A stretch of 64,000 nucleotides of DNA, taken from positions 5,327 to 69,326 of the forward strand of contig JAZOMF010000079.1 in the NCBI GenBank assembly GCA_045653805.1. The letters are read 5' to 3'. Positions 7,574 to 24,296 of this stretch are shown one piece after another (within the stretch, counting starts at the first letter, position 1; each line of letters begins with the position of its first letter). The notes beneath the pieces are model-generated. The model was not told the origin of the DNA and did not search any database. It saw only the letters and a program-made list of their open reading frames with translations. This stretch comes from Eubacteriales bacterium. Lineage in GTDB: Bacteria > Bacillota > Clostridia > Oscillospirales > CAG-272. Both the position numbers and the translations under genes were made by a program.

Positions 7574-8727
7574 AAATAGCTTTTGTGTCTAATTTCTATA
7601 ATCATCACCAAAAGCCCTTAGCTGATGCTCTGTATTCTATGATAGGTGAAGGATATCACTTTATAGAGACTGCGCCGATCAGTACTGAAAGATTAAATAT
7701 GGGCTGGGGTGGAGATCAAAGACCATCTTACATATTGCAAAGCTATATTGATGATGCATCAAAGGAAAAATGTCAGCAGATAATTGACGAGGCTGACGTG
7801 GTGATCTTCGGTAGTGCTCCGTATTCAATGATCCTGCCTCGTTTGCAAAAAGGAAATCTTACCTTTATGTATTGCGAAAGACTATACAAAACGGGAGTTC
7901 CGTATCTTAAATTGCCGGTACATATATTAAAAGCATTTAAGAATTATACGAGATATAAGAATTTTTACGTTCTTTGTGCCAGCGCTTATACTGCAGCGGA
8001 CTTTTCTAAAAGACTTGCGTTTATTGGAAAGACCTATAAGTGGGGATATTTCCCTGCGGTTAAGAAATATGAAAATATAGATAAGCTCATTGAAGAAAAA
8101 AATCCACGCTCTATTTTGTGGACTGCAAGATTTATTGATTGGAAGCACCCCGAAATACCCGTGGCGGTAGCGAAGCGCCTGCAGGCTGACGGCTACGAAT
8201 TTGAGCTTAATATGATAGGAAACGGTGAGCTTGAAGAATATACGAAAGAGCTGATAGAGCGTGAGGGCGTTGCCGATTGCGTTAAACTGCTTGGCTCGAT
8301 GAAGCCTGAGCAGGTTCGAGAGCGTATGGAGAAGAGCGAGATATTCCTCTTTACTTCTGATAGAAATGAGGGCTGGGGCGCGGTGCTCAATGAGAGCATG
8401 AATTCCGGATGCGCCGTGGTCGCCAACAGCGCCATAGGTTCGGTTCCATTCCTTATAAATGACGGTGAAAACGGTTATATGTATAAGGACGGCGACGTGG
8501 ACGATCTATATAATAAGGTAAAGAGCTTGCTTGACAATGCAGACGAGCGCAAGAGTATGGCTAAGAATGCATATAAAACCATGGCGGAAGAGTGGAATGC
8601 CGAAAATGCGGCAGAGAAGCTTGTTGCCCTATGTGAAAAAATGCTCGCCGGTGAATATAAGCCCTTCCCCTATGAGAGCGGAGTTTGCAGTAAGGCGGAG
8701 AGACTTAAAGATAATTGGTACAAATAA
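7570..8727 (+). CDS. Glycosyltransferase family 4
   Basis: It has the motif SDRNEGWGAVLNESMNSGCAVVANSAIGSVPFLINDGENGYMY and an ATGA start/stop overlap with the upstream gene. Confidence 0.7.
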   Translation: MKIAFVSNFYNHHQKPLADALYSMIGEGYHFIETAPISTERLNMGWGGDQRPSYILQSYIDDASKEKCQQIIDEADVVIFGSAPYSMILPRLQKGNLTFMYCERLYKTGVPYLKLPVHILKAFKNYTRYKNFYVLCASAYTAADFSKRLAFIGKTYKWGYFPAVKKYENIDKLIEEKNPRSILWTARFIDWKHPEIPVAVAKRLQADGYEFELNMIGNGELEEYTKELIEREGVADCVKLLGSMKPEQVRERMEKSEIFLFTSDRNEGWGAVLNESMNSGCAVVANSAIGSVPFLINDGENGYMYKDGDVDDLYNKVKSLLDNADERKSMAKNAYKTMAEEWNAENAAEKLVALCEKMLAGEYKPFPYESGVCSKAERLKDNWYK

Positions 8728-8746
8728 TTAACTTGAAAGGTTTTTT

Positions 8747-10174
8747 ATGGATAAATCTACAAAAAAACTGTTAAGCGGCTCGGTGGTATATTTTGTCGGT
8801 AGTGCATTGACCCAGTTAATAAGCTTACTGCTTATGCGCTTTGTTACTGGAAATATATCTCCTGAAGAATATGGATTTTTTAATTTAGTAACAACTGTAT
8901 CGAATCTTGCAATACCATTCGTTACACTACAGATGGCAGATGCTGTTTTTAAGTTTGTTCTAAAATCGGAAACCGAAAATGAGAAAAAAGAATATCTTTC
9001 CATTTGTTTTGTTGTTTCTGCTATCAGCGTTGCTTTGATATACGCAATAGTATGCGGCGTATCATTTTTCTATAAAATACCGCATACTTTTTTGGTTGCA
9101 ACGTATGTTGCTTCCCATGCTTTGATAGGTATATATCATAAAATCACTCGTTGCCTTGGTAAAAACAAGATTTATGTAACGGTAAATTTGATAAAAACCG
9201 CAATTTTTTTGATACTTGAAATCATACTCCTATCTGTTATGGATATGGGAATTGAAGCGTTACTGTTGGCGCACATTATATCTACGATTTTCGGAATAGT
9301 TTGTACGGAGATATGTGTGCGTGCGCTTAAATATTTCAGCTTTAAATCAATTTGCTGGTCAAAATTTAAGAACATGGTTTACTTTTCGATACCTCTTATT
9401 CCTAACGCGGTCTTTTGGTGGTTGACTAATTCTGTTAACTCAGTTATCGTATCCGCAAGATTAGGAATGGATGTTAATGGAATTTATTCGGTATCTAATA
9501 AATTTACCTCTGTTCTTGTTCTCGTTACAAGTGTGCTAAATATGTCTTGGCAGGATACAGCTATTGCCGATTACGGTCAAGATGGCTTTAGTCGTTTCGT
9601 TACCAAGACCTTTAATACATACATAAAATTGATCTTTTCTGCAATAGCAGTTGCGTGTCCTTTGATTGCTTTGGTAATACCTTATATGATAGCTCCTGTA
9701 TATTATGATGCAATTCAATATACCCCATTTTTGATGCTTGCTTCCGGAGTTGCGGCTATGTCTGGTTTTGCAGCACAGATATTTGTTGGAAAGGGAAAAA
9801 CCAAGAGCTTGCTGATAACTTCGTTGTTTGGAATGATTTCTAATATTGCTGTAATCATAGCTCTCGTTGATAAAATTGGACTTTGGGCGGCTGTTTTTGG
9901 TTCTCTTGCGGCGGACTTAGTTATTTTTGTCATAAGAATATTCTTGGCAAGAAAGGATTTTGCTAAGGGTATAAATTTTGTAAGCTTTTCAATAATATTC
10001 GTTATTACGGCAATAAGTATTGTTTTGTATTTTAATGCTGATCCAGTATTGAATGCAGTATGGTATGGAGTTTCCGCCATCATAGCGGTGATCTTGAATT
10101 GGTCGTTTATACGTGATATGATCACTTTGACGTTCGGTAAATTTTTAAATAAATTTATTAAGGGTGAGCAATGA
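8747..10174 (+). CDS. wzx: Wzx-type flippase (MOP/polysaccharide biosynthesis protein family)
   Basis: It is a 475-aa protein with about 12-14 hydrophobic segments. The N-terminus (KKLLSGSVVYFVGSALTQLISLLLMRFVT) is typical of oligosaccharide flippases. Confidence 0.75.
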   Translation: MDKSTKKLLSGSVVYFVGSALTQLISLLLMRFVTGNISPEEYGFFNLVTTVSNLAIPFVTLQMADAVFKFVLKSETENEKKEYLSICFVVSAISVALIYAIVCGVSFFYKIPHTFLVATYVASHALIGIYHKITRCLGKNKIYVTVNLIKTAIFLILEIILLSVMDMGIEALLLAHIISTIFGIVCTEICVRALKYFSFKSICWSKFKNMVYFSIPLIPNAVFWWLTNSVNSVIVSARLGMDVNGIYSVSNKFTSVLVLVTSVLNMSWQDTAIADYGQDGFSRFVTKTFNTYIKLIFSAIAVACPLIALVIPYMIAPVYYDAIQYTPFLMLASGVAAMSGFAAQIFVGKGKTKSLLITSLFGMISNIAVIIALVDKIGLWAAVFGSLAADLVIFVIRIFLARKDFAKGINFVSFSIIFVITAISIVLYFNADPVLNAVWYGVSAIIAVILNWSFIRDMITLTFGKFLNKFIKGEQ

Positions 10175-11247
10175 AAAACTTATTTATAATGCATACTCAA
10201 TATAATCTTATATTGTCAGCGGCGGTTATGTCGAGGTTCACACCCGCGGAGAACACATTAATTTTATATTCGGAGTTTGACTTGAAAGATGAAATGCGTG
10301 AATCGCTTTCGCGGGTTTTTTACAGAGTAATAGTAATCAGAGATAAATTTGCTCCGGTAATGAAACCGTTGGAAGAAACAAGATTTATTCGCAAATGCAT
10401 GAAAAAAGTTAGGTCTATTAGAAACGAGCGCTTTGATAACGTGTATATGTCGCAGGAGCGTATCTTTGATATGATAGTTTGCGCCAGAGCCAAAAAGATC
10501 AATCCCAATCTAAAATGCTACAATATTGAAGAAGATGCTTATTATTCGATAAACGAAAAATATAATGCAGATGATTACCTTCATATTGAAAGTAAGCGAG
10601 CAAAGCGCAGGAAGTTTTTGTTTGCTTTGTTGCTTGCCGGCTATCCTTATAATTATAAGGACGTTCATTACTGCTACGGCATGAGCAGTGAGTATGACGG
10701 TGCGAATATTTTGTACCCTCATCTTGCAAGACGAGAATTAAGGGGAAAAGATCTGATTGAGATAACAAAAGACGAGCTTGTTCGCGGAATAGACGCGATA
10801 TATTCCAAAATTAATATCGAATATCCCAAAAGCGACAAATACACTTTGTTTTTCTTTGATCTAATGAATCGATATAAGAATCCGGAAAGAGTCAAAGAAA
10901 TTGTCAGAGAGATAATACGAATTTCTCGTGAAGAGGGAAGAACGGTTCTTTTAAAATACCATCCCAGAGAAACCGATAAATTTGAGGATGTTGAAGGTGT
11001 AGTTGAATTACCGCATATTATTCCTGCCGAAAAGGTACTGTATGACCTTCTGGGAACCGATACGGTAATTATGGGAAATGCGACTACCTCATGTATTGTT
11101 GCCGCAAAGCTTGGATATGATGTAATATCGATTAGTAAGCTTGAATTTCCTACTAACGAAAAGATACATAATACGATGAAAAAAATGGGCATCTTTTGTG
11201 TCGATAACACCCAAAATATAAATAGTATAATTAGAAAGGATTTTTAA
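10171..11247 (+). CDS. Hypothetical GT-B-like protein; possible bacterial sialyltransferase / polysialyltransferase-like transferase
   Basis: The N-terminus MKNLFIMHTQYNLILSAAVM, an acidic NIEEDAYY segment and a KYHPRE (HP) motif resemble the D/E-D/E-G and HP motifs of bacterial sialyltransferases. It is translationally coupled to the adjacent cytidylyltransferase. The assignment rests on motifs only. Confidence 0.4.
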   Translation: MKNLFIMHTQYNLILSAAVMSRFTPAENTLILYSEFDLKDEMRESLSRVFYRVIVIRDKFAPVMKPLEETRFIRKCMKKVRSIRNERFDNVYMSQERIFDMIVCARAKKINPNLKCYNIEEDAYYSINEKYNADDYLHIESKRAKRRKFLFALLLAGYPYNYKDVHYCYGMSSEYDGANILYPHLARRELRGKDLIEITKDELVRGIDAIYSKINIEYPKSDKYTLFFFDLMNRYKNPERVKEIVREIIRISREEGRTVLLKYHPRETDKFEDVEGVVELPHIIPAEKVLYDLLGTDTVIMGNATTSCIVAAKLGYDVISISKLEFPTNEKIHNTMKKMGIFCVDNTQNINSIIRKDF

Positions 11248-11248
11248 A

Positions 11249-11944
11249 ATGAGTTTTACAGCCGTTATTCCAGTAAGAGAGGGAAGCAGAAGATTAAAAA
11301 ACAAGAATATCGCTCCCTTTGCAGGTACTAATCTTCTTATTAATAAGATTAACCAGTTAAAGCAGGTTCACGAGATTGAAAATATTGTAGTTTCATCAGA
11401 TTCCGAGTTGATGCTTCAAATGGCAGAATCCCAGGGAGTTATGACACACAAAAGAGCTATTGAGTTTTGTGATGAAAAGACTAAAACCTTTGGTGAGGTT
11501 GTTGCTCATGTGTGTGAAAATGTTCCAGGGGACCATGTCATCTGGGCAACCTGTACCGCTCCCTTGGTGTTCCCGAAGCACTATAAGGAGGCTATAGGAT
11601 TATACAACGATGCTTTGGCGAATGGATATGATTCTCTTGTGTCTATGGAGCAGTTTAAGCGTTATTTGTGGGACGATAACGGACCTGTAAACTATGAGCT
11701 TGGTATCAAGCACGTACCTTCACAGCAGTTGAAGCCCTTGTATTTTTGTACTGACGGCATTCTTATTGCTCCCAGAGAGAAGATGATTGAATGGAAGTAT
11801 TTCCACGGAACCAATCCTTATAGATATATTTTGGACAAGAGAACAAGTGTTGACATTGATGATGGGCTTGATCTTGCTTGTGCAAGAGCATGGCTTGATA
11901 TGGATGAAACTGTTTCTCAGATTGATCCGTATATGACAAAGTAA
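11249..11944 (+). CDS. Cytidylyltransferase of the acylneuraminate cytidylyltransferase (CMP-NeuAc/CMP-Kdo synthetase-like) family
   Basis: The N-terminus AVIPVREGSRRLKNKNI is the signature of this family. The length (231 aa) fits. Confidence 0.75.
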   Translation: MSFTAVIPVREGSRRLKNKNIAPFAGTNLLINKINQLKQVHEIENIVVSSDSELMLQMAESQGVMTHKRAIEFCDEKTKTFGEVVAHVCENVPGDHVIWATCTAPLVFPKHYKEAIGLYNDALANGYDSLVSMEQFKRYLWDDNGPVNYELGIKHVPSQQLKPLYFCTDGILIAPREKMIEWKYFHGTNPYRYILDKRTSVDIDDGLDLACARAWLDMDETVSQIDPYMTK

Positions 11945-11963
11945 TTAATTCAAGGAACCCAAA

Positions 11964-12143
11964 ATGAAAGCCCTAATTTTAAACTCCGGTCTTGGTCGCA
12001 GAATGGGAGTGCTTACAAGCGAGCATCCCAAGTGTATGACCGAGATCTCGGCAAAGGATACTATACTTTCCCGTCAGCTGAAGCTTATCGCTGAGGCTAT
12101 GATACTTAAGGATGTATTCCCAAAGAAAAACAGGAGTAAATAA
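11964..12143 (+). pseudogene. Truncated duplicate of the 5' end of the nucleotidyltransferase-PepM fusion gene (59 codons, then stop)
   Basis: By hand alignment, nt 11964-12079 match 13723-13838 with about 5 mismatches in 116 nt. The encoded MKALILNSGLGRRMGVLTSEHPKCMTEISAKDTILSRQL is identical to the start of the 669-aa protein. The sequence then diverges and stops at 12141-12143. Confidence 0.8.
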
Positions 12144-12979
12144 TGAAACTGACAGAAAATCAATTAAAAGAAACAAAAGTTATTGACGCAACTATTGATA
12201 TAGATGGTTTAAAAAAAATTGAATTGCAAATCTTAAAGGATGTACATGTCTTTTGTGAGTCAAATGAAATACGCTATTTCCTATGGGGTGGGACACTGTT
12301 AGGGGCAATTCGGCATGAAGGATTTATCCCTTGGGATGATGACGTAGATATAGCAATGTTCCGCGAAGATTATGAAAAATTTTTGAAGGATTTTAATGTT
12401 GATCAATACGGCATCACCGAATGCTATGGAGATAAGGGACATCCTTTCTGGCACGCAAAGGTCTATCGAAAAGATACAGAGAAAATTGAGAGCGTGTACT
12501 ATAGAAAGGGCTATTCTGTTGGAGTAGATATAGATGTGTTTGTGTTGGATAGCTATAACAATTATGAAGATGTGCTCAAAACTGTGGAATGGCGCCAAAA
12601 ACAGATCAAATGGTATTTTAGAAGTCTTTACTCATCCAAGTCCCGATCCTTAAAGGCAAAGTTTACGGGTTTTTTAACTCGCAATATTCTGTTTTGTAAT
12701 GCGAATAAGACTTCGCGCGCTATAAATAACAAAGCGACAGAGTTTGGACGAGAAGGCGACGGGCTTATGCTGTATGCCGATTCTAATTTGAAACGACCAC
12801 TCAAATTGGAACGAAGCTGGTTTGAAAGCAGAGTTCTGACAAAGTTTGAGGATACGGCATTTTATGTTCCCGGTAACTATGATGCACTGCTCACAGCTTG
12901 CTATGGAGATTATATGACGCCTCCTCCTAAAGAAAAGCAGATTACTCATCACAGTTTTGTTGCTTATTATAAAAACTAA
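12143..12979 (+). CDS. licD: LicD family phosphotransferase (transfers a phospho- or phosphono-substituent from a CDP/CMP-activated donor to a glycan)
   Basis: It has the LicD signature region YFLWGGTLLGAIRHEGFIPWDDDVDIAM, and GDYMTPPP near the C-terminus. Confidence 0.85.
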   Translation: MKLTENQLKETKVIDATIDIDGLKKIELQILKDVHVFCESNEIRYFLWGGTLLGAIRHEGFIPWDDDVDIAMFREDYEKFLKDFNVDQYGITECYGDKGHPFWHAKVYRKDTEKIESVYYRKGYSVGVDIDVFVLDSYNNYEDVLKTVEWRQKQIKWYFRSLYSSKSRSLKAKFTGFLTRNILFCNANKTSRAINNKATEFGREGDGLMLYADSNLKRPLKLERSWFESRVLTKFEDTAFYVPGNYDALLTACYGDYMTPPPKEKQITHHSFVAYYKN

Positions 12980-12994
12980 AGGGAGAAATATATT

Positions 12995-13699
12995 ATGGTT
13001 ACTGCAATTGTAATTTCCGGTGGTAGCGGAACCAGAACAGGACAGGCAATACCAAAGCAATATTTGACTGTTAATGATATTCCTGTTATTGCATATACCT
13101 TGACGAATTTGCAAAAGGTTGAAGAAATTGACAAAATTATTGTGGTGGTTGCTAAAGGATGGGAGAGCTTTGTGTATGCCTATGCGGTTCAGTTCGGCAT
13201 TACCAAGTGTAAGGAGGTAGTTTTTGGAGGGGTAACACGCAATGAGTCCATATATAACGGCTTGTGTGCGCTCAAAGATGATGGAGAAACAGAAAAAGTG
13301 TGTCTTGTAGACGCCAATCGCCCAATGATACCTCAAGAGGTCTTTAGTGGGGCTATTAGTCTCATTGATCAATGTGACGTGGTTTTAACTGCGGATCCTT
13401 GCTATGATAGTATGTTTTATTCGCCCGACGGTGAATGTGCGACACAGAATGTTGAACGTAAAAATCTGTTTAAGGGGCAAACACCTGAGTGCGCAAGGCT
13501 TGACACTATGTTGGAACTATATGCGGATGAATCTTCTCGTTTGGACAACTCACTAAGTACAAGTGCTCTTGCTATAAAAAAAGGTAAACGTGTACTTCTG
13601 GCTAAAGGACATATTAAATGCTTTAAAATAACTACTGTTGATGACTTTACACTATTTAAAGCATTTCTGTCTGCGGAGTCTTCTAAAAATCTTATATAA
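12995..13699 (+). CDS. IspD/TarI-family cytidylyltransferase
   Basis: The N-terminus AIVISGGSGTRTGQAIPKQYL and the 234-aa length are typical of the 2-C-methyl-D-erythritol-4-P / ribitol-5-P cytidylyltransferase family. Confidence 0.75.
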   Translation: MVTAIVISGGSGTRTGQAIPKQYLTVNDIPVIAYTLTNLQKVEEIDKIIVVVAKGWESFVYAYAVQFGITKCKEVVFGGVTRNESIYNGLCALKDDGETEKVCLVDANRPMIPQEVFSGAISLIDQCDVVLTADPCYDSMFYSPDGECATQNVERKNLFKGQTPECARLDTMLELYADESSRLDNSLSTSALAIKKGKRVLLAKGHIKCFKITTVDDFTLFKAFLSAESSKNLI

Positions 13700-13722
13700 A
13701 TAAACACTTCAAAGGAATTAAA

Positions 13723-15732
13723 ATGAAAGCCCTAATTTTGAACTCCGGACTTGGTCGCAGAATGGGAGTGCTTACAAGCGAGCACCCGAAGTGCATGACC
13801 GAGATCTCGGCAAAGGATACTATACTTTCCCGTCAGCTTCGCCTGATCGCAGAGGCGGGAATAAGTGAAGTGGTTATGACCACGGGATATTTTGACGAGG
13901 TGCTGGTAAATTACTGCCACTCGCTGAATCTTCCCCTGCATTACACCTTTGTAAACAATCCCGTTTACGACACAACTAACTACATTTATTCGATATACTG
14001 CGCTCGTGACACTCTTGAGGGCGACGACATCGTGCTTATGCACGGTGATCTGGTGTTTGAGGGCGAGGTTTTCGATAAGGTCATCGCCAGTGAAGTGAGC
14101 TGTATGACCGTCAGCTCGACCCTGCCTCTGCCCGAAAAGGATTTCAAGGCGGTAATAGGCGAGGGAAGAGTGAAGGCTGTTGGCATCGAGTTCTTTACCG
14201 ATGCGCTGGCGGCTCAACCCCTTTACAAGCTTTGCAAAAATGACTGGAAGGTCTGGCTCGACGAGATAGTTGCATTCTGCGAGAGAGATGACCGCAAGTG
14301 TTACGCTGAAAACGCCTTTAACAAGGTGTCGGACAAGTGCCTCATTTATCCCCTTGACGTTGAAAATGCCCTCTGCGGCGAGATCGACACTCCCGAGGAT
14401 CTGGCAGTTGTGGCATCTCGAATTGCCGAGCTTGAAAGCCGTACCGTTTATATGTGCTTTTCTACCGATATGATCCATTCGGGTCACATTTCCATCATCA
14501 AGAAGGCGCAGAAGCTGGGCAGATTGATCATCGGCGTGCTTTCGGACGAGGCGGTTGCCTCCTACAAGCGATTTCCTCTTATGCCTTATGCCGAAAGGAA
14601 ATCCTTGGTTGAAAATATCAACGGCGTGTCTGAGGTTATCGAGCAAAAGGAGCTTTCCTACGCCGCAAATATCCGCGTGCTGAAGCCCGACTTTGTGGTT
14701 CACGGCGATGATTGGCGCGAGGGCTTCCAGAAGCCTATCCGCGACGAGGTCGTTGAGCTTTTGGCAAGCTATGGCGGAAAGCTGGTTGAGTATCCCTATT
14801 CCAAGGCCGAAACATATCTTGAAATGGAAAAGCTCTCCCGAGCGCAGCTTTCTATGCCCGACATGCGCCGTGGCAGACTTAAAAAGCTTATCTCTATGAA
14901 GGGTCTCGTTACCGCCATGGAGGCTCATAGCGGTATCACAGGACTTATCGTTGAGCAGACCAAGGTGCTTAAAGAGGGCAAGACCTATCAGTTTGATGCT
15001 ATGTGGGTATCCAGCCTTTGCGACTCTACCGCCAAGGGCAAGCCTGACATCGAGCTTGTTGATATGACCTCTCGTTTCCGCACCATAGACGACATAATGG
15101 AGGTTACCACCAAGCCCATCATCTTCGACGGCGACACAGGCGGACTTACCGAGCATTTCGTTTATACCGTCAAGAGCCTTGAGCGAATGGGCGTTTCCAT
15201 GGTAATCATCGAGGACAAGACCGGACTTAAAAAGAACTCGCTCTTCGGCACCGAGGTCGAGCAGACCCAGGATAGCATTGAGAACTTCTGCGAGAAGATC
15301 AGGGCGGGTAAGAAGGCGCAGAAGACCAAGGAATTTATGATCTGTGCGCGTATTGAGTCGCTCATTCTTGAAAGAGGAATGGAGGACGCGCTGGAAAGAG
15401 CGTTTGCCTTCTCTGATGCAGGTGCTGATGCTATTATGATCCACAGCCGCAAGAAGGATCCTGCGGAGATATTTGAGTTTGTGGAGAAGTTCCGTCAAAA
15501 GAATAAGGCAACTCCCATTGTGGTAGTTCCTACCTCCTTTAATACCGTCACCGAGCAGGAGTTTAAGCAGATAGGCGTCAACGTGGTTATCTACGCAAAT
15601 CAGTTAACTCGTAGCGGTTTCCCCGCAATGCAAAAGACCGCCCTCACCATCCTTGAAAACCACCGTGCCAAGGAAGCGGATGATATGTGTATGTCCATCA
15701 AAGAGATAATTACACTTATTCCGGAGGAATAA
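13723..15732 (+). CDS. pepM: Three-domain fusion: LicC-like nucleotidyltransferase, HxGH cytidylyltransferase and phosphoenolpyruvate mutase (PepM)
   Basis: aa 1-235 carry the NTP-transferase motif LNSGLGRRMG. aa 240-370 form a cytidylyltransferase-like domain with MIHSGHI (HxGH). aa 375-669 are PepM with DGDTGG and the diagnostic EDK-x5-NS motif (IEDKTGLKKNS). Confidence 0.9.
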   Translation: MKALILNSGLGRRMGVLTSEHPKCMTEISAKDTILSRQLRLIAEAGISEVVMTTGYFDEVLVNYCHSLNLPLHYTFVNNPVYDTTNYIYSIYCARDTLEGDDIVLMHGDLVFEGEVFDKVIASEVSCMTVSSTLPLPEKDFKAVIGEGRVKAVGIEFFTDALAAQPLYKLCKNDWKVWLDEIVAFCERDDRKCYAENAFNKVSDKCLIYPLDVENALCGEIDTPEDLAVVASRIAELESRTVYMCFSTDMIHSGHISIIKKAQKLGRLIIGVLSDEAVASYKRFPLMPYAERKSLVENINGVSEVIEQKELSYAANIRVLKPDFVVHGDDWREGFQKPIRDEVVELLASYGGKLVEYPYSKAETYLEMEKLSRAQLSMPDMRRGRLKKLISMKGLVTAMEAHSGITGLIVEQTKVLKEGKTYQFDAMWVSSLCDSTAKGKPDIELVDMTSRFRTIDDIMEVTTKPIIFDGDTGGLTEHFVYTVKSLERMGVSMVIIEDKTGLKKNSLFGTEVEQTQDSIENFCEKIRAGKKAQKTKEFMICARIESLILERGMEDALERAFAFSDAGADAIMIHSRKKDPAEIFEFVEKFRQKNKATPIVVVPTSFNTVTEQEFKQIGVNVVIYANQLTRSGFPAMQKTALTILENHRAKEADDMCMSIKEIITLIPEE

Positions 15733-15768
15733 GAGTATCCCCGAAGAATAATTTTTGAGGAATAAAAA

Positions 15769-16878
15769 GTGAAACAAAGAATTATTGAAGGAAGTGCATC
15801 CTACAGGGAGATTGGAGAAGCGCTCCGCTCCCTTGGGGTCACCAAATATATGCTGGTTTATAGCGGATCGGCAAAAAGACTTCCCGTGTGGGAGTATCTT
15901 GCTCATCTTGACATCCCTCGCGTGCTCTTTTCGGACTTTACCCCCAATCCCAAGTATGAGGAGATCGTGGGCGGTGTTGACCTGTTTAGAGCAGAGAATT
16001 GCGACGGGATCCTTGCCGTAGGTGGCGGAAGCGCGATCGACGTGGCAAAATGCATCAAGCTCTACTCAAAAATGAGCAAGGACAAGCTCTATCTTGATCA
16101 AAAATGTACCGACACGGGCATTCCGCTTATAGCTCTGCCCACCACGGCAGGAACCGGAAGCGAGTCTACTCCTTTCTCGGTTATATATTATAAAGGAGAG
16201 AAACAGTCGGTCAAGCACCCGAGCATTTTGCCAGACGTGGCGATTTTGGACGGTGACGTGCTTGAAAATCTGCCGCTTTATCAGAAAAAATGTACCGTTC
16301 TGGATGCCTACTGTCAAGCAATCGAGGCTTGGTGGAGTGTCAATTCGTGCGACGAGAGTATAGCCTGCTCAAAAGCCGCCATCGAGTTGATAAAGGACTA
16401 TATCTTTGAATACGTGGAGCAAAACACCTGCGTGTCGCGTCACAAGATAATGACGGCATCAAACCTTGCGGGTCAGGCGATAGCGTACACCGCTACTACC
16501 GCCCCCCACGCTATGAGCTATAAGCTGACCACCACCTACGGTTATCCCCATGGTCATTCGGTAGGAATCAGCCTGCCGCGAGTGTGGAAATATATGATTG
16601 AAAATTACGAGAGCTGTAATGATAGTCGAGGAGCAGACTACGTTCTTGCCACCTTTGACGAGATAGCAAACGCGCTTGGGTACGCGACCGCAAAAGATGC
16701 GGCAGAGGGCTTTGAAGCAATGCTTTCAAGGCTTGAAATAGGCTATCCTCACGATGAAAACAGGGAAGAGATGGCGAAATATCTTGCCGACTCGGTGAAC
16801 GTGGAGCGACTTGGCAACAACCCCGTAGCTCTTGATAACAAAGAACTTTACGATCTTTATCTGGAGATGTTTATATAA
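15769..16878 (+). CDS. Iron-containing (group III) alcohol dehydrogenase; predicted phosphonoacetaldehyde reductase (GTG start)
   Basis: It has Fe-ADH motifs (AVGGGSAIDVAKC, ALPTTAGTGSE, the histidine-rich PHAMSY...HGHSVG). It lies between pepM and the phosphonopyruvate decarboxylase gene. PhpC, FomC and DhpG belong to this family. Confidence 0.65.
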   Translation: MKQRIIEGSASYREIGEALRSLGVTKYMLVYSGSAKRLPVWEYLAHLDIPRVLFSDFTPNPKYEEIVGGVDLFRAENCDGILAVGGGSAIDVAKCIKLYSKMSKDKLYLDQKCTDTGIPLIALPTTAGTGSESTPFSVIYYKGEKQSVKHPSILPDVAILDGDVLENLPLYQKKCTVLDAYCQAIEAWWSVNSCDESIACSKAAIELIKDYIFEYVEQNTCVSRHKIMTASNLAGQAIAYTATTAPHAMSYKLTTTYGYPHGHSVGISLPRVWKYMIENYESCNDSRGADYVLATFDEIANALGYATAKDAAEGFEAMLSRLEIGYPHDENREEMAKYLADSVNVERLGNNPVALDNKELYDLYLEMFI

Positions 16879-17987
16879 TGAAGCTTGATTTTTTAAAGGA
16901 ATTTGAATTTTTTGCAGGAGTTCCCGATTCACTTCTCAAGCCTCTTTGCAATTACCTTATGGCGACCTACGGCATTTCAAGTAAGCACGTGATTGCCGCT
17001 AATGAGGGTAACGCCGTGGGACTTGCGGCGGGCTACCACTTGGCAACGGGAAAGGTGCCGGTGGTCTATATGCAGAACAGTGGACTGGGAAATATTATTA
17101 ACCCCGTGGCGTCACTTATGAACGATAAGGTTTACGGCATCCCCTGCCTCTTTATCGTAGGCTGGCGAGGTGAGCCGGGCGTTCACGATGAGCCCCAGCA
17201 TATCTATCAAGGCGAGGTTACAGTCCGTCTCCTTGAGGACATGGATATTGCTACCTTTGTAGTAAGCAAGAGCACTACCGCCAAGGAGCTTGAAGAGAAG
17301 ATGACGGAGTTCCGCGCTCTTTGGGCAATCGGAAAGCAGACCGCCTTGGTTATCCGCAAGGGCGCCCTTGAATTTGACGGAAAGGTCAAGTATTCAAACG
17401 AAAACAGCATGGTGCGCGAGGAGATAATCGAGCATATCGCCTCGGCAAGTGAGGGTGACGTAGTAGTATCCACCACTGGCAAAGCCTCGAGAGAGCTTTT
17501 CGAGATTCGAGAGCGAAGAGGTCAGGCACACGGTTCTGATTTCCTAACGGTTGGCTCTATGGGTCATTCCTCGTCGATTGCCCTTGCAATCGCCAATGAA
17601 AAGCCCGACCGCAAGATCTGGATAATCGACGGAGACGGAGCGCTGCTTATGCACATGGGCTCTATGGCGCTTCTTGGAGCCAACGCTCCCAAAAACGTGG
17701 TTCACATCGTTATAAATAATGGAGCACACGAGACGGTTGGCGGACTTCCCACTGTGGCAGAGAAGATCGACCTTATGAAGATAGCAGAAGGATGTGGATA
17801 TCCCTCGTTTGAGAGTGTGGATAGCTTTGATGCGCTGGATAACGCGCTGGATAGAGCAAAGGTATCGGATCAACTCTCGTTTATTGAGGTCAAATGCTCC
17901 ATCGGAGCGAGAGACGACCTCGGCAGACCCACGACCACAGCAAAAGAAAACAAAGAGAACTTTATGAAGTATCTGGAGGATAAATAA
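16878..17987 (+). CDS. aepY: Phosphonopyruvate decarboxylase (TPP-dependent)
   Basis: The N-terminus FFAGVPDSLLKPLCNYL...ANEGNAVGLAAGYHLATGK...MQNSGLGN and the TPP-binding segment IIDGDGALLMHMGS...NN are characteristic of Ppd/AepY. Confidence 0.85.
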   Translation: MKLDFLKEFEFFAGVPDSLLKPLCNYLMATYGISSKHVIAANEGNAVGLAAGYHLATGKVPVVYMQNSGLGNIINPVASLMNDKVYGIPCLFIVGWRGEPGVHDEPQHIYQGEVTVRLLEDMDIATFVVSKSTTAKELEEKMTEFRALWAIGKQTALVIRKGALEFDGKVKYSNENSMVREEIIEHIASASEGDVVVSTTGKASRELFEIRERRGQAHGSDFLTVGSMGHSSSIALAIANEKPDRKIWIIDGDGALLMHMGSMALLGANAPKNVVHIVINNGAHETVGGLPTVAEKIDLMKIAEGCGYPSFESVDSFDALDNALDRAKVSDQLSFIEVKCSIGARDDLGRPTTTAKENKENFMKYLEDK

Positions 17988-17988
17988 A

Positions 17989-19041
17989 ATGGGACTTTTT
18001 ACAGGTAAAACACTTTTGATCACAGGTGGTACAGGCTCTTTCGGTAATGCCGTACTCAACCGTTTTCTTGACACCGATATCGGTGAGATCAGAATTTTCT
18101 CCCGCGACGAAAAGAAGCAGGACGATATGCGTCACTATTTTCAGGTAACAAAGCCCGAGGTAGCAGAGAAGATCAAGTTCTACATTGGTGATGTGCGCGA
18201 CATCGCAAGCGTGCGCAACGCTATGCACGGAGTTGACTACATATTCCACGCGGCGGCATTGAAGCAGGTGCCCTCTTGCGAGTTTTTCCCCATTGAGGCG
18301 GTAAAGACCAACGTGCTTGGTACTGAAAACGTGCTTACTGCGGCAATCGATGCAGGCGTTAAGAACATCGTTTGTCTTTCCACCGACAAGGCGGCTTACC
18401 CCGTAAACGCTATGGGAACAAGTAAGGCGATGATGGAGAAGGTAATCGTGGCGAAGTCCAGAACAGTCAGCCCCGAGAAGACCAAGATCTGCTGCACCCG
18501 TTACGGCAACGTAATGTGCTCTCGCGGCTCTGTAATTCCGCTTTGGATAGACCAGATAAGAGCAGGTAACCCCATAACCGTTACCGACCCCACAATGACC
18601 AGATTTATTATGTCGCTTGACGAGGCGGTGGATCTCGTTCTCTTTGCATTTGAGCATGGTGAGAGCGGTGACATTCTTGTACAGAAAGCGCCTGCTTGTA
18701 CCATCAAGACACAGGCAGAGGCGGTTTGCGAGCTTTTCGGCGGCGACAAAAACGCTATCAAGGTTATCGGTATCCGTCACGGTGAGAAGATGTATGAAAC
18801 TCTCCTTACCAACGAGGAGTGCGCGAATGCTATCGACCTCGGCAACTTCTACCGTGTGCCCTGCGACAAGCGTGGACTTAATTACGATAAGTACTTCAAT
18901 AAGGGCGATACCGAGAGAAATACCCTCACCGAGTTCAATTCTCACAATACCCAGCTTCTTAACGTGGAAGAGACCAAGGCGAAGATCGCTTCTCTCGCGT
19001 ATATTCAGGAAGAGTTGGCGAAATTTGTGGGCAAAAAATGA
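17989..19041 (+). CDS. fnlA: UDP-N-acetylglucosamine 4,6-dehydratase/5-epimerase (FnlA/CapE type)
   Basis: It has KTLLITGGTGSFGNAV, IRIFSRDEKKQ, CLSTDKAAYPVNAMGTSKA and RYGNVMCSRGSVIPLW, the CapE/FnlA pattern. Confidence 0.85.
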   Translation: MGLFTGKTLLITGGTGSFGNAVLNRFLDTDIGEIRIFSRDEKKQDDMRHYFQVTKPEVAEKIKFYIGDVRDIASVRNAMHGVDYIFHAAALKQVPSCEFFPIEAVKTNVLGTENVLTAAIDAGVKNIVCLSTDKAAYPVNAMGTSKAMMEKVIVAKSRTVSPEKTKICCTRYGNVMCSRGSVIPLWIDQIRAGNPITVTDPTMTRFIMSLDEAVDLVLFAFEHGESGDILVQKAPACTIKTQAEAVCELFGGDKNAIKVIGIRHGEKMYETLLTNEECANAIDLGNFYRVPCDKRGLNYDKYFNKGDTERNTLTEFNSHNTQLLNVEETKAKIASLAYIQEELAKFVGKK

Positions 19042-19691
19042 AACGTTTTTTAAAAAAAATAATTAGAAAATACTATCGTTTGTTTAATTATTTGCCTTTC
19101 AATAACAAATACAGATTGAGAGGAAATAAGATCAAAAACTATGGTAAATCTCTCTATAAGTGTAAGTTTTTGTGTGCCGGAAAAGGTAATACTATAATTT
19201 TACACGACGACGGGATGATAAGAAATACCACTTTTTGTATAAAGGGAAACAATAATACCATCGAAATAGGCAAAAACTCCTATATAGTTAACGGAGATTT
19301 GTATATTGAGGATGATGGCAACATTATCAGTATCGGAGATCAGACACGATTGTGTGGAAAGATACATTTAGCATGCACCGAGTCTAAACGTATAAAAATA
19401 GGTAATGACTGCCTTTTTTCGTCGGAAATAGTGTTTAGAACAGGGGATTCGCATTCACTGTTGGATATGGATGGCAATCGTATTAACCCTGCCGCAGACA
19501 TTGTTATTGATGATCATGTATGGATCGGTTACAGGGTGTTGGTGAACAAAGGCGTACATATCGCTTCAAATAATATGGTGGGAACTGGGTCAGTGGTTAC
19601 AAAAAGATTTGATGATAGTAACACAGTGATTGCTGGTGTTCCTGCAAAAGTGATTAAAAATGGTACCGATTGGTGTATTGAAAGAAAATAA
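19038..19691 (+). CDS. Left-handed beta-helix (hexapeptide-repeat) acetyltransferase
   Basis: The C-terminal half has hexapeptide repeats (IGNDCLFSSEIVFRTGDSH ... IDDHVWIGYRVLVNKGVHIASNNMVGTGSVV). It is a markedly AT-rich gene lying between fnlA and fnlB. Confidence 0.65.
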   Translation: MKRFLKKIIRKYYRLFNYLPFNNKYRLRGNKIKNYGKSLYKCKFLCAGKGNTIILHDDGMIRNTTFCIKGNNNTIEIGKNSYIVNGDLYIEDDGNIISIGDQTRLCGKIHLACTESKRIKIGNDCLFSSEIVFRTGDSHSLLDMDGNRINPAADIVIDDHVWIGYRVLVNKGVHIASNNMVGTGSVVTKRFDDSNTVIAGVPAKVIKNGTDWCIERK

Positions 19692-19709
19692 ACGGGTGAG
19701 TACGAATAT

Positions 19710-20906
19710 ATGAAAATACTTATAACCGGAGCTTACGGCTTCGTTGGAAAAAACCTCACCGAGGTATTGAAAAACATTAAAGACGGCAAGGACAGACGCT
19801 TTCCCTCTCTCTCTATCGACGAGCTTTATCTCTACGATATAGACACCGACGAAAGCGTGCTGGAGGAGGCTTGCCGGCAGGCTGACTTCGTTTTCAACCT
19901 TGCAGGCGTCAACCGCCCACAAAACCCCGAGGAGTTTATGCAGGGTAACTTCGGATTTGCCTCAAAGCTTTTGGAAACGCTGAAAAAATACGGCAACAAA
20001 TGCCCCGTGATGATCTCGTCGTCTATTCAGGCTACCTGTATCGGTCGCTATGATAGTGATTACGGCAGAAGCAAAAAGGCAGGCGAGGAGCTGATCTTTG
20101 CCTATGGTGAAGAGAGCGGCGCCAAGGTGCTGGTCTACCGCTTCCCAAATCTCTTCGGTAAGTGGTGCAGACCTAATTATAACAGCGCGGTGGCAACCTT
20201 CTGCAACAATATTGCAAACGACCTGCCCATCACGGTAAATGATCCCTCGGTCTGCCTTGAATTGCTCTATATCGACGATCTTGTGGACGAAATGATCGCC
20301 GCGCTCGAAAAAAGAGAGCATCGTTGCACCTTTGACGGTATCGAAACCGTGCTTTGCGAGGACGGTCGCTATTGCGCTGCTCCCGTGACACATAAGGTCA
20401 CTCTTGGCGAAATAGTTTCGCTTCTTGAATCCTTCCGTGATCAGCCAAAGACTCTCGTTATGCCCGAAATTCCCGAAAATAGCTTTGCAAAGAAGCTTTA
20501 TAGCACCTATTTGTCTTATCTCCCAAAGGAAAAGGTCTCTTTCCCCTTGAAGATGAACGTGGATGCAAGAGGCAGCTTCACCGAACTGCTGAAAACCGAA
20601 AAATGCGGTCAGTTCTCGGTAAATATCTCAAAGCCTGGTATTACCAAGGGTCAGCATTGGCATAACACGAAGTGGGAATTCTTTATAGTTGTAAGCGGCA
20701 AGGGGCTTATTCAGATGCGCAAGATCGGCTCTGACGAGGTGCTGAATTTTGAGGTTTCGGGGGAGAAGATCGAGGCTATACATATGCTCCCCGGTTATAC
20801 ACACAACATAATCAATCTCTCGGACAGCGAGGATCTCGTAACCCTTATGTGGGCAAACGAGCAGTTTGATCCCACAAGCCCCGATACTTTTTTTGAGACA
20901 GTTTAA
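19710..20906 (+). CDS. fnlB: CapF/FnlB-type bifunctional reductase/epimerase (N-terminal SDR plus C-terminal cupin)
   Basis: It has the N-terminal Rossmann motif ILITGAYGFVGKNL and a C-terminal cupin region (GSFTELLKT...GQHWHNTKWEFFIVVSGKG). It sits in fnlA/fnlC context. Confidence 0.8.
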   Translation: MKILITGAYGFVGKNLTEVLKNIKDGKDRRFPSLSIDELYLYDIDTDESVLEEACRQADFVFNLAGVNRPQNPEEFMQGNFGFASKLLETLKKYGNKCPVMISSSIQATCIGRYDSDYGRSKKAGEELIFAYGEESGAKVLVYRFPNLFGKWCRPNYNSAVATFCNNIANDLPITVNDPSVCLELLYIDDLVDEMIAALEKREHRCTFDGIETVLCEDGRYCAAPVTHKVTLGEIVSLLESFRDQPKTLVMPEIPENSFAKKLYSTYLSYLPKEKVSFPLKMNVDARGSFTELLKTEKCGQFSVNISKPGITKGQHWHNTKWEFFIVVSGKGLIQMRKIGSDEVLNFEVSGEKIEAIHMLPGYTHNIINLSDSEDLVTLMWANEQFDPTSPDTFFETV

Positions 20907-20927
20907 CTTGAAAGAGAAGGTTTATTT

Positions 20928-21860
20928 ATGACTATTGAAGGTAAAAGAAAGCTGATATTTATTCCATACGCTGAAATTGTTAATGCAGAATCCGGAGTTA
21001 ATATTTCTGCCAAGTCAGCCCGAAAGGAAATATATTTGAAAAATTGCTGTGTTTCTCTTGTTTCAGCTAAAGCTTATAATGATTGTGATGTGGCCTTGGT
21101 TACCAATATTGACGTGCCGGAACAATACAAAAAAGTGTTAGAGGCTAATGGGGTACTTATTTTAAAATGTGAATTCGATCAATTTTTGTTTGGCTTGAAT
21201 TACAAGTGGAATTTGGCATTCTATAAGTTGTGTGCATTGTATCACATCTCTCGAGAGTATGAATATGATTTTTATTCATATCTTGATGCCGACGTATATG
21301 TTAAAGCTTCATTTAACGATATATGGGATGAATGTAGTAATAATATTTTATTATATGATATATGTCACGGACTCCAAGTGAGAGATTATCGAATTTTTTT
21401 GGATGAAGTGAGAGCATTTAATGGATACAGTTTAATTACTCACTTTGGGGGAGAATTTTTTGCGGCAAATAGAGAACAAGCTCTTGCGTTTTCTGATAGA
21501 TGCCTTGAGATACATAAGGAAATGATACAAAAAGATTTCCTTACTACAAAGGGCGATGAGTTTATTTTATCTATTGCCGCGTATGACATGAAGCAACAAG
21601 TAAAGAATGCGGGAGCATATATATATAGATATTGGACTGATATTAATTTCAGACTGGTTTCTACTAACTACATGTATAATCCTGTTGCTATACTCCATGT
21701 TCCCAATGAAAAAGAAAAGGGATTGTTGGAAATCTATGATAAATACATCAGAATTAATAAGATTCCAGAGACAGAGAAAGTGTATAATATGTTGAGAATC
21801 AAAAGGCAGCCAATGGTAGATGTATTTAAAAAGAAAATTAGAGGAATGATGAAAAAATGA
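20928..21860 (+). CDS. Hypothetical protein, possible GT-A fold (DxD) transferase
   Basis: Only a DxD-like YLDADVYV motif and locus context support this call. The gene is AT-rich compared with the flanking fnlB and fnlC. Confidence 0.3.
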   Translation: MTIEGKRKLIFIPYAEIVNAESGVNISAKSARKEIYLKNCCVSLVSAKAYNDCDVALVTNIDVPEQYKKVLEANGVLILKCEFDQFLFGLNYKWNLAFYKLCALYHISREYEYDFYSYLDADVYVKASFNDIWDECSNNILLYDICHGLQVRDYRIFLDEVRAFNGYSLITHFGGEFFAANREQALAFSDRCLEIHKEMIQKDFLTTKGDEFILSIAAYDMKQQVKNAGAYIYRYWTDINFRLVSTNYMYNPVAILHVPNEKEKGLLEIYDKYIRINKIPETEKVYNMLRIKRQPMVDVFKKKIRGMMKK

Positions 21861-23044
21861 TGAACATAAAACTTGATTACAGCGACGTTTCTTTCAAGAA
21901 CGACGGCAGACTTAAGCTGCTTATCATCGTAGGCACACGCCCCGAGATCATTCGTCTTGCGGCGGTAATAAACAAGTGCCGTAAATATTTTGACTGCGTT
22001 TTAGCCCACACGGGTCAGAACTACGATTATAACCTCAACGGCGTTTTCTTCAAGGACTTAAAGCTTGAAGCTCCCGAGGTCTATATGGATGCGGTTGGCG
22101 ACGATCTTGGCGCAACCGTGGGCAATATCATCAACTGCTCCTATAAGCTGATGAATGCAATTAAACCCGATGCGCTCCTCATTCTCGGAGACACCAACTC
22201 TTGTCTTTCCGCGATCGCGGCAAAGAGATTGCATATTCCGATCTTCCACATGGAAGCAGGAAACCGTTGCAAGGACGAGTGCTTGCCCGAGGAAACCAAC
22301 CGCCGCATAGTTGACATCATTTCCGACGTCAATCTGGCGTACAGTGAGCAGGCGAGAACATACCTCCACGATTGCGGTCTCCCAAAGGAGAGAACCTACG
22401 TTACAGGCTCGCCCATGGCAGAGGTTCTTCACGAAAATCTTGATGAGATCAGAGCCAGCGACGTTCACGCTCGGTTAGGTCTCGAAAAGAAGAAATACAT
22501 CCTTCTTTCGGCACACAGAGAAGAGAACATCGACACCGAGAAGAACTTTTTGTCGCTCTTCACCGCTATAAATAAGATGGCAGAGAAGTACGATATGCCC
22601 GTGCTTTACTCCTGCCACCCCAGAAGCAAAAAGAGACTTGAAGCAAGCGGCTTCCAGCTTGACAAGAGAGTTATTTGCAACCAGCCTCTCGGATTCCACG
22701 ATTATAACTGCTTGCAGATGAACGCATTTGCGGTAGTTTCGGATAGCGGCACACTTCCCGAGGAAAGCTCCTTCTTCACAAGTGTGGGCAATCCTTTCCC
22801 CGCGGTCTGCATTCGAACCTCTACTGAGAGACCCGAGGCGCTTGACAAGGCTTGCTTTATTCTTGCGGGAATTGACGAAAATTCACTTCTTCAGGCGGTA
22901 GAAACCGCGGTTTCAATGACCGAGGCAGGCGACTACGGTATCCCCGTGCCTACCTATACCGACGAGATAGTTTCCACCAAGGTAGTTAAGATCATCCAGT
23001 CTTACACCGGCGTGGTAAATAAAATGGTTTGGAGAAAATTCTGA
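21857..23044 (+). CDS. fnlC: UDP-N-acetylglucosamine 2-epimerase, non-hydrolysing (FnlC/CapG type)
   Basis: It has LLIIVGTRPEIIRLA, HTGQNYD, ILGDTNS, HMEAGNRC and PEE.NRR, the WecB/FnlC family signatures. Confidence 0.85.
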   Translation: MMNIKLDYSDVSFKNDGRLKLLIIVGTRPEIIRLAAVINKCRKYFDCVLAHTGQNYDYNLNGVFFKDLKLEAPEVYMDAVGDDLGATVGNIINCSYKLMNAIKPDALLILGDTNSCLSAIAAKRLHIPIFHMEAGNRCKDECLPEETNRRIVDIISDVNLAYSEQARTYLHDCGLPKERTYVTGSPMAEVLHENLDEIRASDVHARLGLEKKKYILLSAHREENIDTEKNFLSLFTAINKMAEKYDMPVLYSCHPRSKKRLEASGFQLDKRVICNQPLGFHDYNCLQMNAFAVVSDSGTLPEESSFFTSVGNPFPAVCIRTSTERPEALDKACFILAGIDENSLLQAVETAVSMTEAGDYGIPVPTYTDEIVSTKVVKIIQSYTGVVNKMVWRKF

Positions 23045-23064
23045 TTTTTAAGAAAGGAGCGCAA

Positions 23065-24264: not shown

Positions 24265-24296
24265 ACCGCAGACTTTTGTCTGCGGTGCTTTTTTAT
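24265..24296. terminator. Bidirectional rho-independent terminator between the polysaccharide locus and the convergent permease gene
   Basis: It is a 9-bp perfect stem (ACCGCAGAC TTTT GTCTGCGGT) flanked by an A-run upstream and a T-run downstream. Confidence 0.8.

Follow-up and report, generated by a model that had tools for sequence, protein, structure and literature searches.

Glycans carrying 2-hydroxyethylphosphonate (HEP) have, according to the literature cited in two recent papers, been proven chemically only in two actinomycetes, Stackebrandtia nassauensis and Glycomyces sp. (Yu et al. 2014, via PMC8942020 and PMC13576164). HEP-type ppm neighbourhoods form 8.5% of one gene inventory, in which an isolated product is available for only two of ten gene-cluster families (PMC8942020), and a count from 2019 gave 42 Ppm proteins with the triple fusion (PMC6697681). 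The genes pepM, aepY and phpC were reported together in the Clostridium-class organism Cellulosilyticum lentocellum, and such clusters occur with LicD-type neighbours (PMC9381506). In the fosfomycin enzyme Fom1, the cytidylyltransferase (CyTase) domain converts HEP and CTP into CMP-HEP, as PMC6697681 states with reference to Cho 2017. Our literature search for HEP chemistry in Firmicutes or on polysaccharides of Clostridia returned nothing beyond genomic inventories. Here, we describe a locus in 64,000 nucleotides of contig JAZOMF010000079.1 from an Eubacteriales bacterium (the window, in which all positions are counted unless a related locus is named), where a triple-fusion phosphoenolpyruvate (PEP) mutase (PepM), an iron-type alcohol dehydrogenase (ADH) and a phosphonopyruvate decarboxylase (Ppd) are encoded side by side. 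We consider it likely that this is a Wzx/Wzy heteropolysaccharide operon around a conserved four-activity module that would provide CMP-HEP for a surface glycan, with LicD as the most likely transferase.

The PepM, ADH and Ppd trio

The open reading frame (ORF) of PepM scored 410.7 bits on the TIGR02320 PEP mutase model, above the cut-off of 319.55, and the diagnostic sequence EDKTGLKKNS was found at residues 497-506 (nucleotides 15211-15240). The EDKxxxxxNS catalytic motif separates true Ppm proteins from other members of PF13714 (PMC6697681). The mutase is the last of three domains in this protein (Table 1) and is matched by the solved PEP mutase 1m1b with an E-value of 5e-40.

The middle domain of the fusion is closest to the CyTase domain of Fom1 from Streptomyces wedmorensis (PDB 5x3d; E 2.6e-41, 145 bits), with 64 of 121 residues identical (53%), and the remaining PF01467 structures were observed to match at E 3e-13 or worse. 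The HxGH motif is intact and reads HSGH at residue 252 (nucleotides 14476-14487). This domain is predicted from its similarity to make CMP-HEP from HEP and CTP, and it points to HEP over 2-aminoethylphosphonate (AEP) independently of the dehydrogenase. The first domain has LicC of Streptococcus pneumoniae as its best solved match (1jyk, E 8.5e-8), while the AEP-specific PntC structure 6pd1 matches weakly (E 0.0086) and no AEP-forming enzyme is present at the locus. Its GxGxR...PK signature reads SGLGRRMG...PK. As this LicC-like domain is conserved at 65-91% identity across the related loci, it is probably functional.

The Ppd scored 470.1 bits on TIGR03297 (cut-off 312.5) and has both thiamine pyrophosphate domains, PF02776 at the N-terminus and PF02775 at the C-terminus. 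The long ORFs of the 64-kb window were all free of Aminotran_5, Aminotran_3 and DegT domains. A first-pass annotation of the same DNA had reported the PepM with an EDK-x5-NS motif, the Ppd, an iron-type ADH between them, the lack of an aminotransferase, and LicD with several cytidylyltransferase domains upstream. All of these were recovered in the family scans, the cytidylyltransferase domains being located in the genes on either side of LicD and twice within the PepM ORF, but the three-domain fusion had been missed. The same annotation had favoured HEP over AEP as the product, and this agrees with the PhpC signature of the ADH, with the Fom1-type domain and with the occurrence of the trio without a transaminase in every related locus that was fetched.

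The ADH matches both Fe-ADH (137 bits) and ADH_Fe_C, as expected for the PF00465 fold. Its GTG start agrees with the N-termini of homologues, and its stop codon overlaps the start of Ppd by one base, the two genes being translationally coupled. In the PhpC model, HEP is bound by Lys157, Thr256, Tyr264 and Arg349, and the metal ligands are Asp191, His195, His260 and His274; the tyrosine is strictly conserved in PhpC whereas phenylalanine takes its place in sulfoacetaldehyde reductase (PMC13576164, 2026). Residues K145, T243, Y251 and R347 of the ADH align with the four HEP-binding residues, a match made by alignment offsets from the metal ligands and through PepM-linked Streptomyces homologues, not with the P. 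fungorum sequence itself. None of the four varies among 43 homologues or among the 18 PepM-linked ADHs. These 18 ADHs, which adjoin PepM and Ppd in Clostridia, Lentisphaeria, Defluviitaleaceae and two Streptomyces, carry without exception the pattern K-D-[H/Q]-T-H-Y-H-R in an alignment of 133 relatives, where ADHs without a PepM neighbour show many other residue patterns. The metal ligands in the window are D179, Q183, H247 and H261, and the glutamine is common to all PepM-linked ADHs of the window's lineage and to locus L015. As judged from the alignment, the ADH has a PhpC substrate constellation combined with a glutamine ligand of the sulfoacetaldehyde-reductase type.

The position of the gene is also conserved. 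Using the synteny test of PMC9381506, we found the ADH between PepM and Ppd in the window and in L001, L087, L088, L090, L091 and L009-L017, whereas in L093 it is placed after Ppd. In a neighbour-joining tree, the window ADH and the PepM-linked ADHs other than those of Streptomyces form one clade of 63 sequences, whose only members known without PepM are the P0113-type orphans and L008; this placement is relative to PepM-linked homologues rather than to characterised PhpC, FomC or DhpG enzymes. The ADH is predicted on these grounds to be a phosphonoacetaldehyde reductase of the PhpC/FomC/DhpG type (EC 1.1.1.309) that forms HEP.

Several observations weigh against this assignment. The ADH passes no curated equivalog threshold, and on TIGR03405 (Phn_Fe-ADH/PsrA), which appears to cover the PsrA subgroup only, it scored 135.6 bits against 423.7. 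The first histidine ligand of modelled PhpC is replaced by Q183, as in the sulfoacetaldehyde reductase 6jkp. The best sequence match and the best fold match are both with the sulfoacetaldehyde reductase 6jko (AlphaFold2 model with pLDDT 95.2 and a TM score of 0.85 to 6jko), with other Fe-ADHs nearly as high. A homologue of 56% identity, P0113 (L004-L006), is named phosphonoacetaldehyde reductase at NCBI and is found far from any PepM. Members of the ADH clade are known from genes alone. Moreover, the locus is cut by the start of the window and the gene survey covers 64 kb of the genome. These points would suit an ADH of the general or sulfoacetaldehyde-type Fe/Zn class, with phosphonoacetaldehyde converted to AEP by a transaminase encoded outside the window or put to some other use. 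We regard this as highly improbable. The PhpC-specific tyrosine is present in place of the phenylalanine of sulfoacetaldehyde reductases, and the position between PepM and Ppd is fixed in a lineage where ADH identity falls to 39-43%. Furthermore, the fused CyTase is nearest to the HEP-specific Fom1 domain and not to the AEP-specific PntC, and no transaminase lies beside the trio in the related loci examined, apart from a histidine gene discussed below.

The surroundings of P0113 were also examined. The gene lies between mutS2 and the genes for an AraC regulator and a sugar ABC transporter, in surroundings that lack PepM and Ppd, and its product has the full K-D-Q-T-H-Y-H-R pattern. It could have a catabolic role, or its name could have been transferred by similarity.

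Related loci and the predicted fate of HEP

A search for the triple-fusion PepM returned at least 120 protein clusters. Among the matches listed, all were 80-96% identical and 649-671 residues long, and their named sources were all Clostridia and Ruminococcaceae/Oscillospiraceae metagenome genomes. The view of the first-pass annotation that such a locus is unusual for Firmicutes is therefore overstated at the gene level, and published inventories also list this type.

Six contexts of the window's lineage (L001, L087, L088, L090, L091/92 and L093) were found to have the fusion, ADH and Ppd adjacent to each other with no aminotransferase. In five of these six, all but L093, the trio shares its chromosomal location with that of the window, and a conserved block of permease, RpiR, HI0933-like, Cmk, PlsC and IspH-S1 genes begins shortly downstream. 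In a second group, from rumen metagenomes (L007, L009-L014 and L017), the fusion protein is 65-84% identical, whereas the ADH reaches only 39-43%. A contig scan for ADH relatives gave at most 43% identity among the matches listed. No Aminotran_5, Aminotran_3 or DegT domain was found in 30 neighbouring ORFs (300-500 residues) of L009-L011, L013, L015 and L017. The single aminotransferase seen near a trio is HisC, which is encoded next to HisD on the opposite strand in L013.

We considered whether the ADH of the window's lineage is a non-orthologous replacement, with 42% identity to the ADH of the rumen group compared with 75-84% for PepM. This was rejected as the neighbour-joining tree unites both groups. 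Faster divergence of the ADH is the simpler reading of the low identity, because both groups fall in one PepM-linked clade of that tree.

The locus of the window has no phosphonatase, HEPD/MpnS-type dioxygenase or radical-SAM (S-adenosylmethionine) methylase among its genes. As no enzyme that would modify HEP was found there, HEP itself is most likely the head group. HEP is a transient intermediate in the fosfomycin, phosphinothricin and methylphosphonate pathways, and the end product here might similarly be another phosphonate, either as a small molecule or as an altered head group. In favour of this, cytidylylation by Fom1 is a passing step on the way to fosfomycin (PMC6697681), the locus encodes three proteins without an assigned function (10171-11247, 20928-21860 and the NTP_transf_5 protein), and in L001 the trio is followed by genes for a 1,2-eliminase-class glycyl-radical enzyme and its activase. 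Nevertheless, we find such an outcome very unlikely. Next to the trio in the window there is no Fom3-type radical-SAM/B12 methylase, no HEPD or MpnS dioxygenase, and no nonribosomal peptide synthetase (NRPS) or ATP-grasp tailoring gene; oxygen-dependent routes would be unlikely in an obligate anaerobe; and most relatives, like the window, have the trio within a polysaccharide operon.

The glycyl-radical enzyme in L001, a locus whose ADH is 76% identical to that of the window, has 657 residues and is encoded together with a radical-SAM activase (10214-13005 of that locus). Its best matches are HypD, sulfopropanediol dehydratase and CutC, and a 1676-residue protein without a Pfam match is encoded upstream. 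The 1,2-eliminases of the glycyl-radical type include one that cleaves isethionate, which is the sulfonate counterpart of HEP. By analogy, because the L001 enzyme belongs to the same class, it is conceivable that it acts on HEP or CMP-HEP.

Candidate transferases for the HEP group

Gene identities, motifs, domain similarity and conserved synteny are observed directly, and from them we infer the substrates of the ADH and of the CyTase domain, the donor role of CMP-HEP, the role of LicD and the acceptor sugar in the following sequence. The PepM domain would convert PEP into phosphonopyruvate, which Ppd would decarboxylate to phosphonoacetaldehyde and CO2, pulling an unfavourable equilibrium forward. 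The PhpC-type dehydrogenase would then reduce phosphonoacetaldehyde with NAD(P)H to HEP, and the Fom1-type domain fused in front of PepM would join HEP with CTP to give CMP-HEP. This would serve as the donor for a phosphotransferase of the CDP-alcohol type, most likely LicD here and a TagF-like enzyme in sister strains. LicD would esterify a sugar hydroxyl of a lipid-linked repeat unit containing an L-FucNAc-type sugar made by FnlA, FnlB and FnlC, and the HEP-bearing unit would finally be flipped by Wzx and polymerised by Wzy.

LicD contains a DDDxD motif in which D65, D66, D67 and D69 were observed to be invariant in five aligned LicDs. It is a candidate for transfer of the 2-hydroxyethylphosphonyl group from CMP-HEP, or of an alditol-phosphate from a CDP-alditol. 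The first alternative gains support from transferases of the CDP-alcohol type that are encoded right beside PepM in independent loci: the window, L011 and L017 have LicD there, and L091/L092 has a TagF-like protein. For example, L091/L092, whose PepM is 91% identical, has a TagF-family CDP-glycerol-type phosphotransferase at the LicD position. L011 has three LicDs, and L017 has three LicDs and an IspD-like gene, with the order LicD, IspD-like, LicD, PepM repeated at only 26-30% protein identity. Such recurrence of LicD or TagF-type genes beside PepM supports CMP-HEP-dependent transfer to the glycan, as judged from gene order.

A likely trace of exchange at this position was also found. The beginning of the PepM fusion gene, comprising the ribosome-binding site and about 45 codons, occurs a second time in truncated form on the + strand at 11961-12097, within an apparent intergenic gap of 198 nucleotides upstream of LicD. 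It belongs to a direct repeat between 11939-12097 and 13698-13856 (159 nucleotides, 87% identity; core of 137 nucleotides at 92%). The remnant can be read as an ORF of 59 residues with the translation MKALILNSGLGRRMGVLTSEHPKCMTEISAKDTILSRQL..., which then diverges to a stop. No second copy of the PepM 5' end was found in the other fetched loci. LicD and its TarI-like neighbour are thus bracketed by copies of the PepM 5' end in what looks like a recombination scar, and the pair would have been swapped as a cassette anchored on PepM.

The transferase role of LicD is a weaker step, and some of the evidence above can be read in the opposite direction. The best solved relatives of the TarI-like protein that adjoins LicD are the ribitol-5-phosphate cytidylyltransferases 2vsh, 4jis and 6xhp; on TIGR00453 it reached 139.9 bits, under the cut-off of 181.3. 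Among the 11 distinct related loci with enough flanking sequence, a LicD or TagF-like gene was found within 8-10 kb in only three in addition to the window; neither was within reach in L001, L009, L010, L013, L015, L088, L090 and L093, and the genes before the trio in L090 include none that can be recognised as polysaccharide genes. In addition, the G+C content at third codon positions (GC3) of the LicD and TarI-like genes is 0.32-0.35 compared with 0.54-0.62 for the trio, and the pair lies within the scar. On an alternative reading the HEP module is genuine, but LicD and its TarI-like partner would be an independent unit gained by horizontal transfer, with ribitol-phosphate or some other alditol-phosphate taken from a CDP-alditol as the group that is added. 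Another enzyme (the NTP_transf_5 protein, a glycosyltransferase-like protein or one encoded elsewhere) would in that case use CMP-HEP, or the acceptor would be different, for instance a teichoic-acid-like polymer or a lipid.

We consider this separate-pair arrangement unlikely, although the kinship of the TarI-like protein with ribitol-5-phosphate enzymes keeps addition of alditol-phosphate by LicD conceivable. Against it, no TarJ-type ribulose-5-phosphate reductase or other source of alditol-phosphate was found in the window. A LicD or TagF-like gene is immediately next to the PepM fusion in four loci that are independent of each other, and the gene order in L017, kept at such low identity, suggests a functional link. 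The NTP_transf_5 protein resembles neither LicD nor any phosphotransferase structure to a significant degree. The first-pass annotation had named LicC-type enzymes for CMP activation and LicD-type enzymes as presumed transferases. The activation step is well supported by the Fom1-type CyTase fused to PepM, whereas LicD is assigned its role by inference, with a TarI-like partner, a TagF-like substitute in the sister locus and no counterpart within 8-10 kb in most related loci. Overall, that annotation is partly supported.

The NTP_transf_5 protein at the end of the operon (PF14907, 140 bits) was considered as a LicD-like transferase of HEP and set aside, since its profile showed no significant relation to that of LicD (probability 0.4%). 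Its AlphaFold2 model (pLDDT 91.7) gave weak matches to nucleotidyltransferases of the polymerase-beta type, none at E <= 0.001 in the PDB. Within the window's lineage the gene is found with the trio in the majority of loci (L087, L088, L091, L092 and L093), and it is absent from the loci of the rumen group. Its ORF spans 23029-24234, but the ATG at 23065, behind AAGAAAGGAG, is probably the true start because homologues have about 389 residues.

HEP that is esterified through its phosphonate keeps a free hydroxyl group, unlike AEP or choline. It could for this reason act as a bifunctional linker or repeating unit instead of a terminal decoration, forming a teichoic-acid-like chain or bridge with C-P bonds; the two fused cytidylyltransferase domains, the TarI-like protein, and the presence of up to three LicDs (L011 and L017) or of an enzyme of the TagF-type primase/polymerase family (L091) would all fit. 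Structures such as glycan-O-P(=O)(O-)-CH2CH2-O-P-alditol or oligo-HEP may be formed in that case, and the conserved PepM, ADH and Ppd module may be the lineage-wide invariant beside a hypervariable glycan island. We regard such a linker role as doubtful.

Operon context and comparison with described systems

The + strand from base 2 to about 24290 forms a single tightly packed operon of the Wzx/Wzy polysaccharide type (Table 1), with a priming transferase, a flippase and a putative polymerase, the last scoring below the cut-off of TIGR04370. The operon ends in a stem-loop at 24265-24286 that faces the convergent gene of a xanthine/uracil permease. Apart from this stem-loop, promoter and terminator scans gave results no better than shuffled sequence.

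Table 1. Features of the polysaccharide operon in the window, with the domains of the PepM fusion listed below the parent gene
Feature	Positions	Strand	Evidence or remark
ATP-grasp ligase	2-868	+	Pfam/NCBIfam scans; cut by window start
Polyprenyl-phosphate sugar-phosphate transferase	872-1531	+	Bac_transf, 193 bits
Five GT4 glycosyltransferases	1559-5099 and 6356-8727	+	Pfam/NCBIfam scans
Putative Wzy	5133-6359	+	9 hydrophobic segments; TIGR04370 29.6 bits, cut-off 40
Wzx	8747-10174	+	Polysacc_synt 64.8 bits; 11 hydrophobic segments
Polysialyltransferase-like protein (weak match)	10171-11247	+	Pfam/NCBIfam scans
CTP_transf_3 CMP-sugar-type cytidylyltransferase, weakly PseF/KdsB-like	11249-11944	+	
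LicD	12143-12979	+	PF04991, 138.2 bits, full model
TarI-like (IspD-family) cytidylyltransferase	12995-13699	+	PF01128, 112 bits
PepM triple fusion, 669 residues	13723-15732	+	TIGR02320
Fusion domain 1, LicC/PntC-like nucleotidyltransferase (PF12804)	13723-14427	+	NTP_transf_3 37.8 bits, cut-off 27, residues 3-122
Fusion domain 2, Fom1-type cytidylyltransferase (PF01467)	14443-14805 (residues 241-361)	+	CTP_transf_like 52.5 bits, residues 249-343
Fusion domain 3, PEP mutase (PEP to phosphonopyruvate)	14878-15732 (from residue 386)	+	TIGR02320
Fe-type alcohol dehydrogenase (ADH)	15769-16878	+	Fe-ADH and ADH_Fe_C domains
Phosphonopyruvate decarboxylase (Ppd)	16878-17987	+	TIGR03297
FnlA, FnlB-like and FnlC-like sugar genes with two inserts (whole segment)	17989-23044	+	
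FnlA	17989-19041	+	TIGR04130 526 bits, cut-off 730 (best match, sub-threshold)
Hexapeptide acetyltransferase insert	19038-19691	+	GC3 0.34
FnlB/WbcJ-like reductase	19710-20906	+	NF047837 354 bits, cut-off 500 (best match, sub-threshold)
310-residue protein insert, no family match	20928-21860	+	GC3 0.30
FnlC/WecB-type 2-epimerase	21857-23044	+	TIGR00236 218.8 bits, above 210.15 cut-off
NTP_transf_5 (PF14907) protein	23065-24234	+	Last operon gene

Base composition along the operon is a mosaic. GC3 is 0.54-0.62 in the trio and the three Fnl genes, compared with 0.35 in LicD, 0.32 in the TarI-like gene and 0.31 in Wzx, and the upstream part (2-11944), with GC3 of 0.31-0.49, is the variable portion of the operon. 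The three Fnl genes, which are likely to be sugar genes of the UDP-L-FucNAc type by their family matches, have GC3 of 0.58-0.60, whereas the two inserts between them have 0.30-0.34. The Fnl genes were observed to be contiguous in L087 and L091. The CTP_transf_3 cytidylyltransferase is paired with the weak polysialyltransferase-like protein, and no gene for a nonulosonic-acid or 3-deoxy-D-manno-octulosonic acid (Kdo) synthase was found in the polysaccharide locus to pair with it.

Other features lie beyond the operon. The Rfam Gut-1 RNA motif (RF01706) was found on the + strand at 28321-28391, between the HI0933-like gene and cmk, with 57.2 bits against a gathering score of 50. A protein of 1481 residues (41774-46219) has a C-terminal type I dockerin as its sole Pfam match, which fits a cellulosome-bearing Ruminococcaceae/Oscillospiraceae host. 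The names given at NCBI to PepM proteins of 81-92% identity point to Clostridia and to Ruminococcaceae/Oscillospiraceae as the taxonomic setting of the window. The region 51524-57414 encodes an NRPS-like carboxylate reductase of 983 residues (AMP-binding, PP-binding and thioester reductase domains) followed by a fusion of BcrAD/BadFG and DUF2229 "CoA enzyme activase" domains with 974 residues.

Since surveys have already catalogued this gene pattern, the window is a well-supported further case of it. The glutamine-type variant of PhpC, the interchangeable LicD and TagF-like partners and the use of PepM as a recombination anchor may be new. Chemical confirmation would make this the first surface glycan with HEP demonstrated in Firmicutes, and would give the triple-fusion class of PepM, which is abundant in gut and rumen metagenomes of Oscillospiraceae and Clostridia, its first assigned product. 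Phosphonate esters resist phosphatases and phosphodiesterases. For this reason, a conserved HEP epitope on strain-variable polysaccharides could affect phage adsorption, recognition by host lectins and antibodies, and what becomes of phosphorus in gut and rumen, the last of which ties in with newly described HEP-catabolic dehydrogenases. Fom1-type cytidylylation of HEP, known from an antibiotic pathway, would probably be used mainly for cell-surface tailoring.

The HEP phosphonoglycans of Stackebrandtia nassauensis and Glycomyces sp. belong to the same predicted product class, a polysaccharide esterified with HEP. They are made by Actinobacteria with other gene clusters, and the comparison with the window is one of product class. 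The methylphosphonate exopolysaccharide cluster of Nitrosopumilus maritimus (pepM, ppd, pdh and mpnS) also has PepM, Ppd and an Fe-ADH that give HEP, in a polysaccharide-type neighbourhood (PMC8942020, PMC9381506). Unlike that cluster, the window does not encode MpnS, and the predicted head group is HEP instead of methylphosphonate.

The AEP tailoring pathways represented by PntC of Atopobium rimae (Ari1348) and Treponema denticola (Tde1415; PMC6697681) and by the AEP polysaccharide of Bacteroides fragilis have PepM and Ppd in common with the window, as well as nucleotidyl activation fused to PepM, LicD-like or glycosyltransferase neighbours and a cell-surface target. They use an Aminotran_5 AEP transaminase and an AEP-specific PntC of PF12804. 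In the window a PhpC-type reductase takes the place of the transaminase, and a Fom1-type PF01467 domain is present next to a PF12804 domain that matches PntC weakly. The Lic phosphocholine pathway of S. pneumoniae (LicC and LicD) resembles the window in the cytidylyl activation of a small head group and in transfer by the LicD family. In contrast to that pathway, the window has no choline kinase or transporter, and its head group would contain a C-P bond and be made de novo from PEP.

The early steps of fosfomycin biosynthesis in Streptomyces wedmorensis, with the Fom1 CyTase-PepM fusion, the Fom2 Ppd and the FomC reductase, follow the same chemistry up to CMP-HEP as is proposed for the window. 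In both Fom1 and the window fusion, a PF01467 cytidylyltransferase is placed N-terminal to PepM, with 53% identity between the two domains. The window has an additional LicC-like domain and does not encode the Fom3 methylase, Fom4 epoxidase or FomD hydrolase. Whereas the cytidylyl group is a transient handle in the fosfomycin pathway, CMP-HEP in the window would be a transfer donor within a Wzx/Wzy operon of anaerobic Clostridia.

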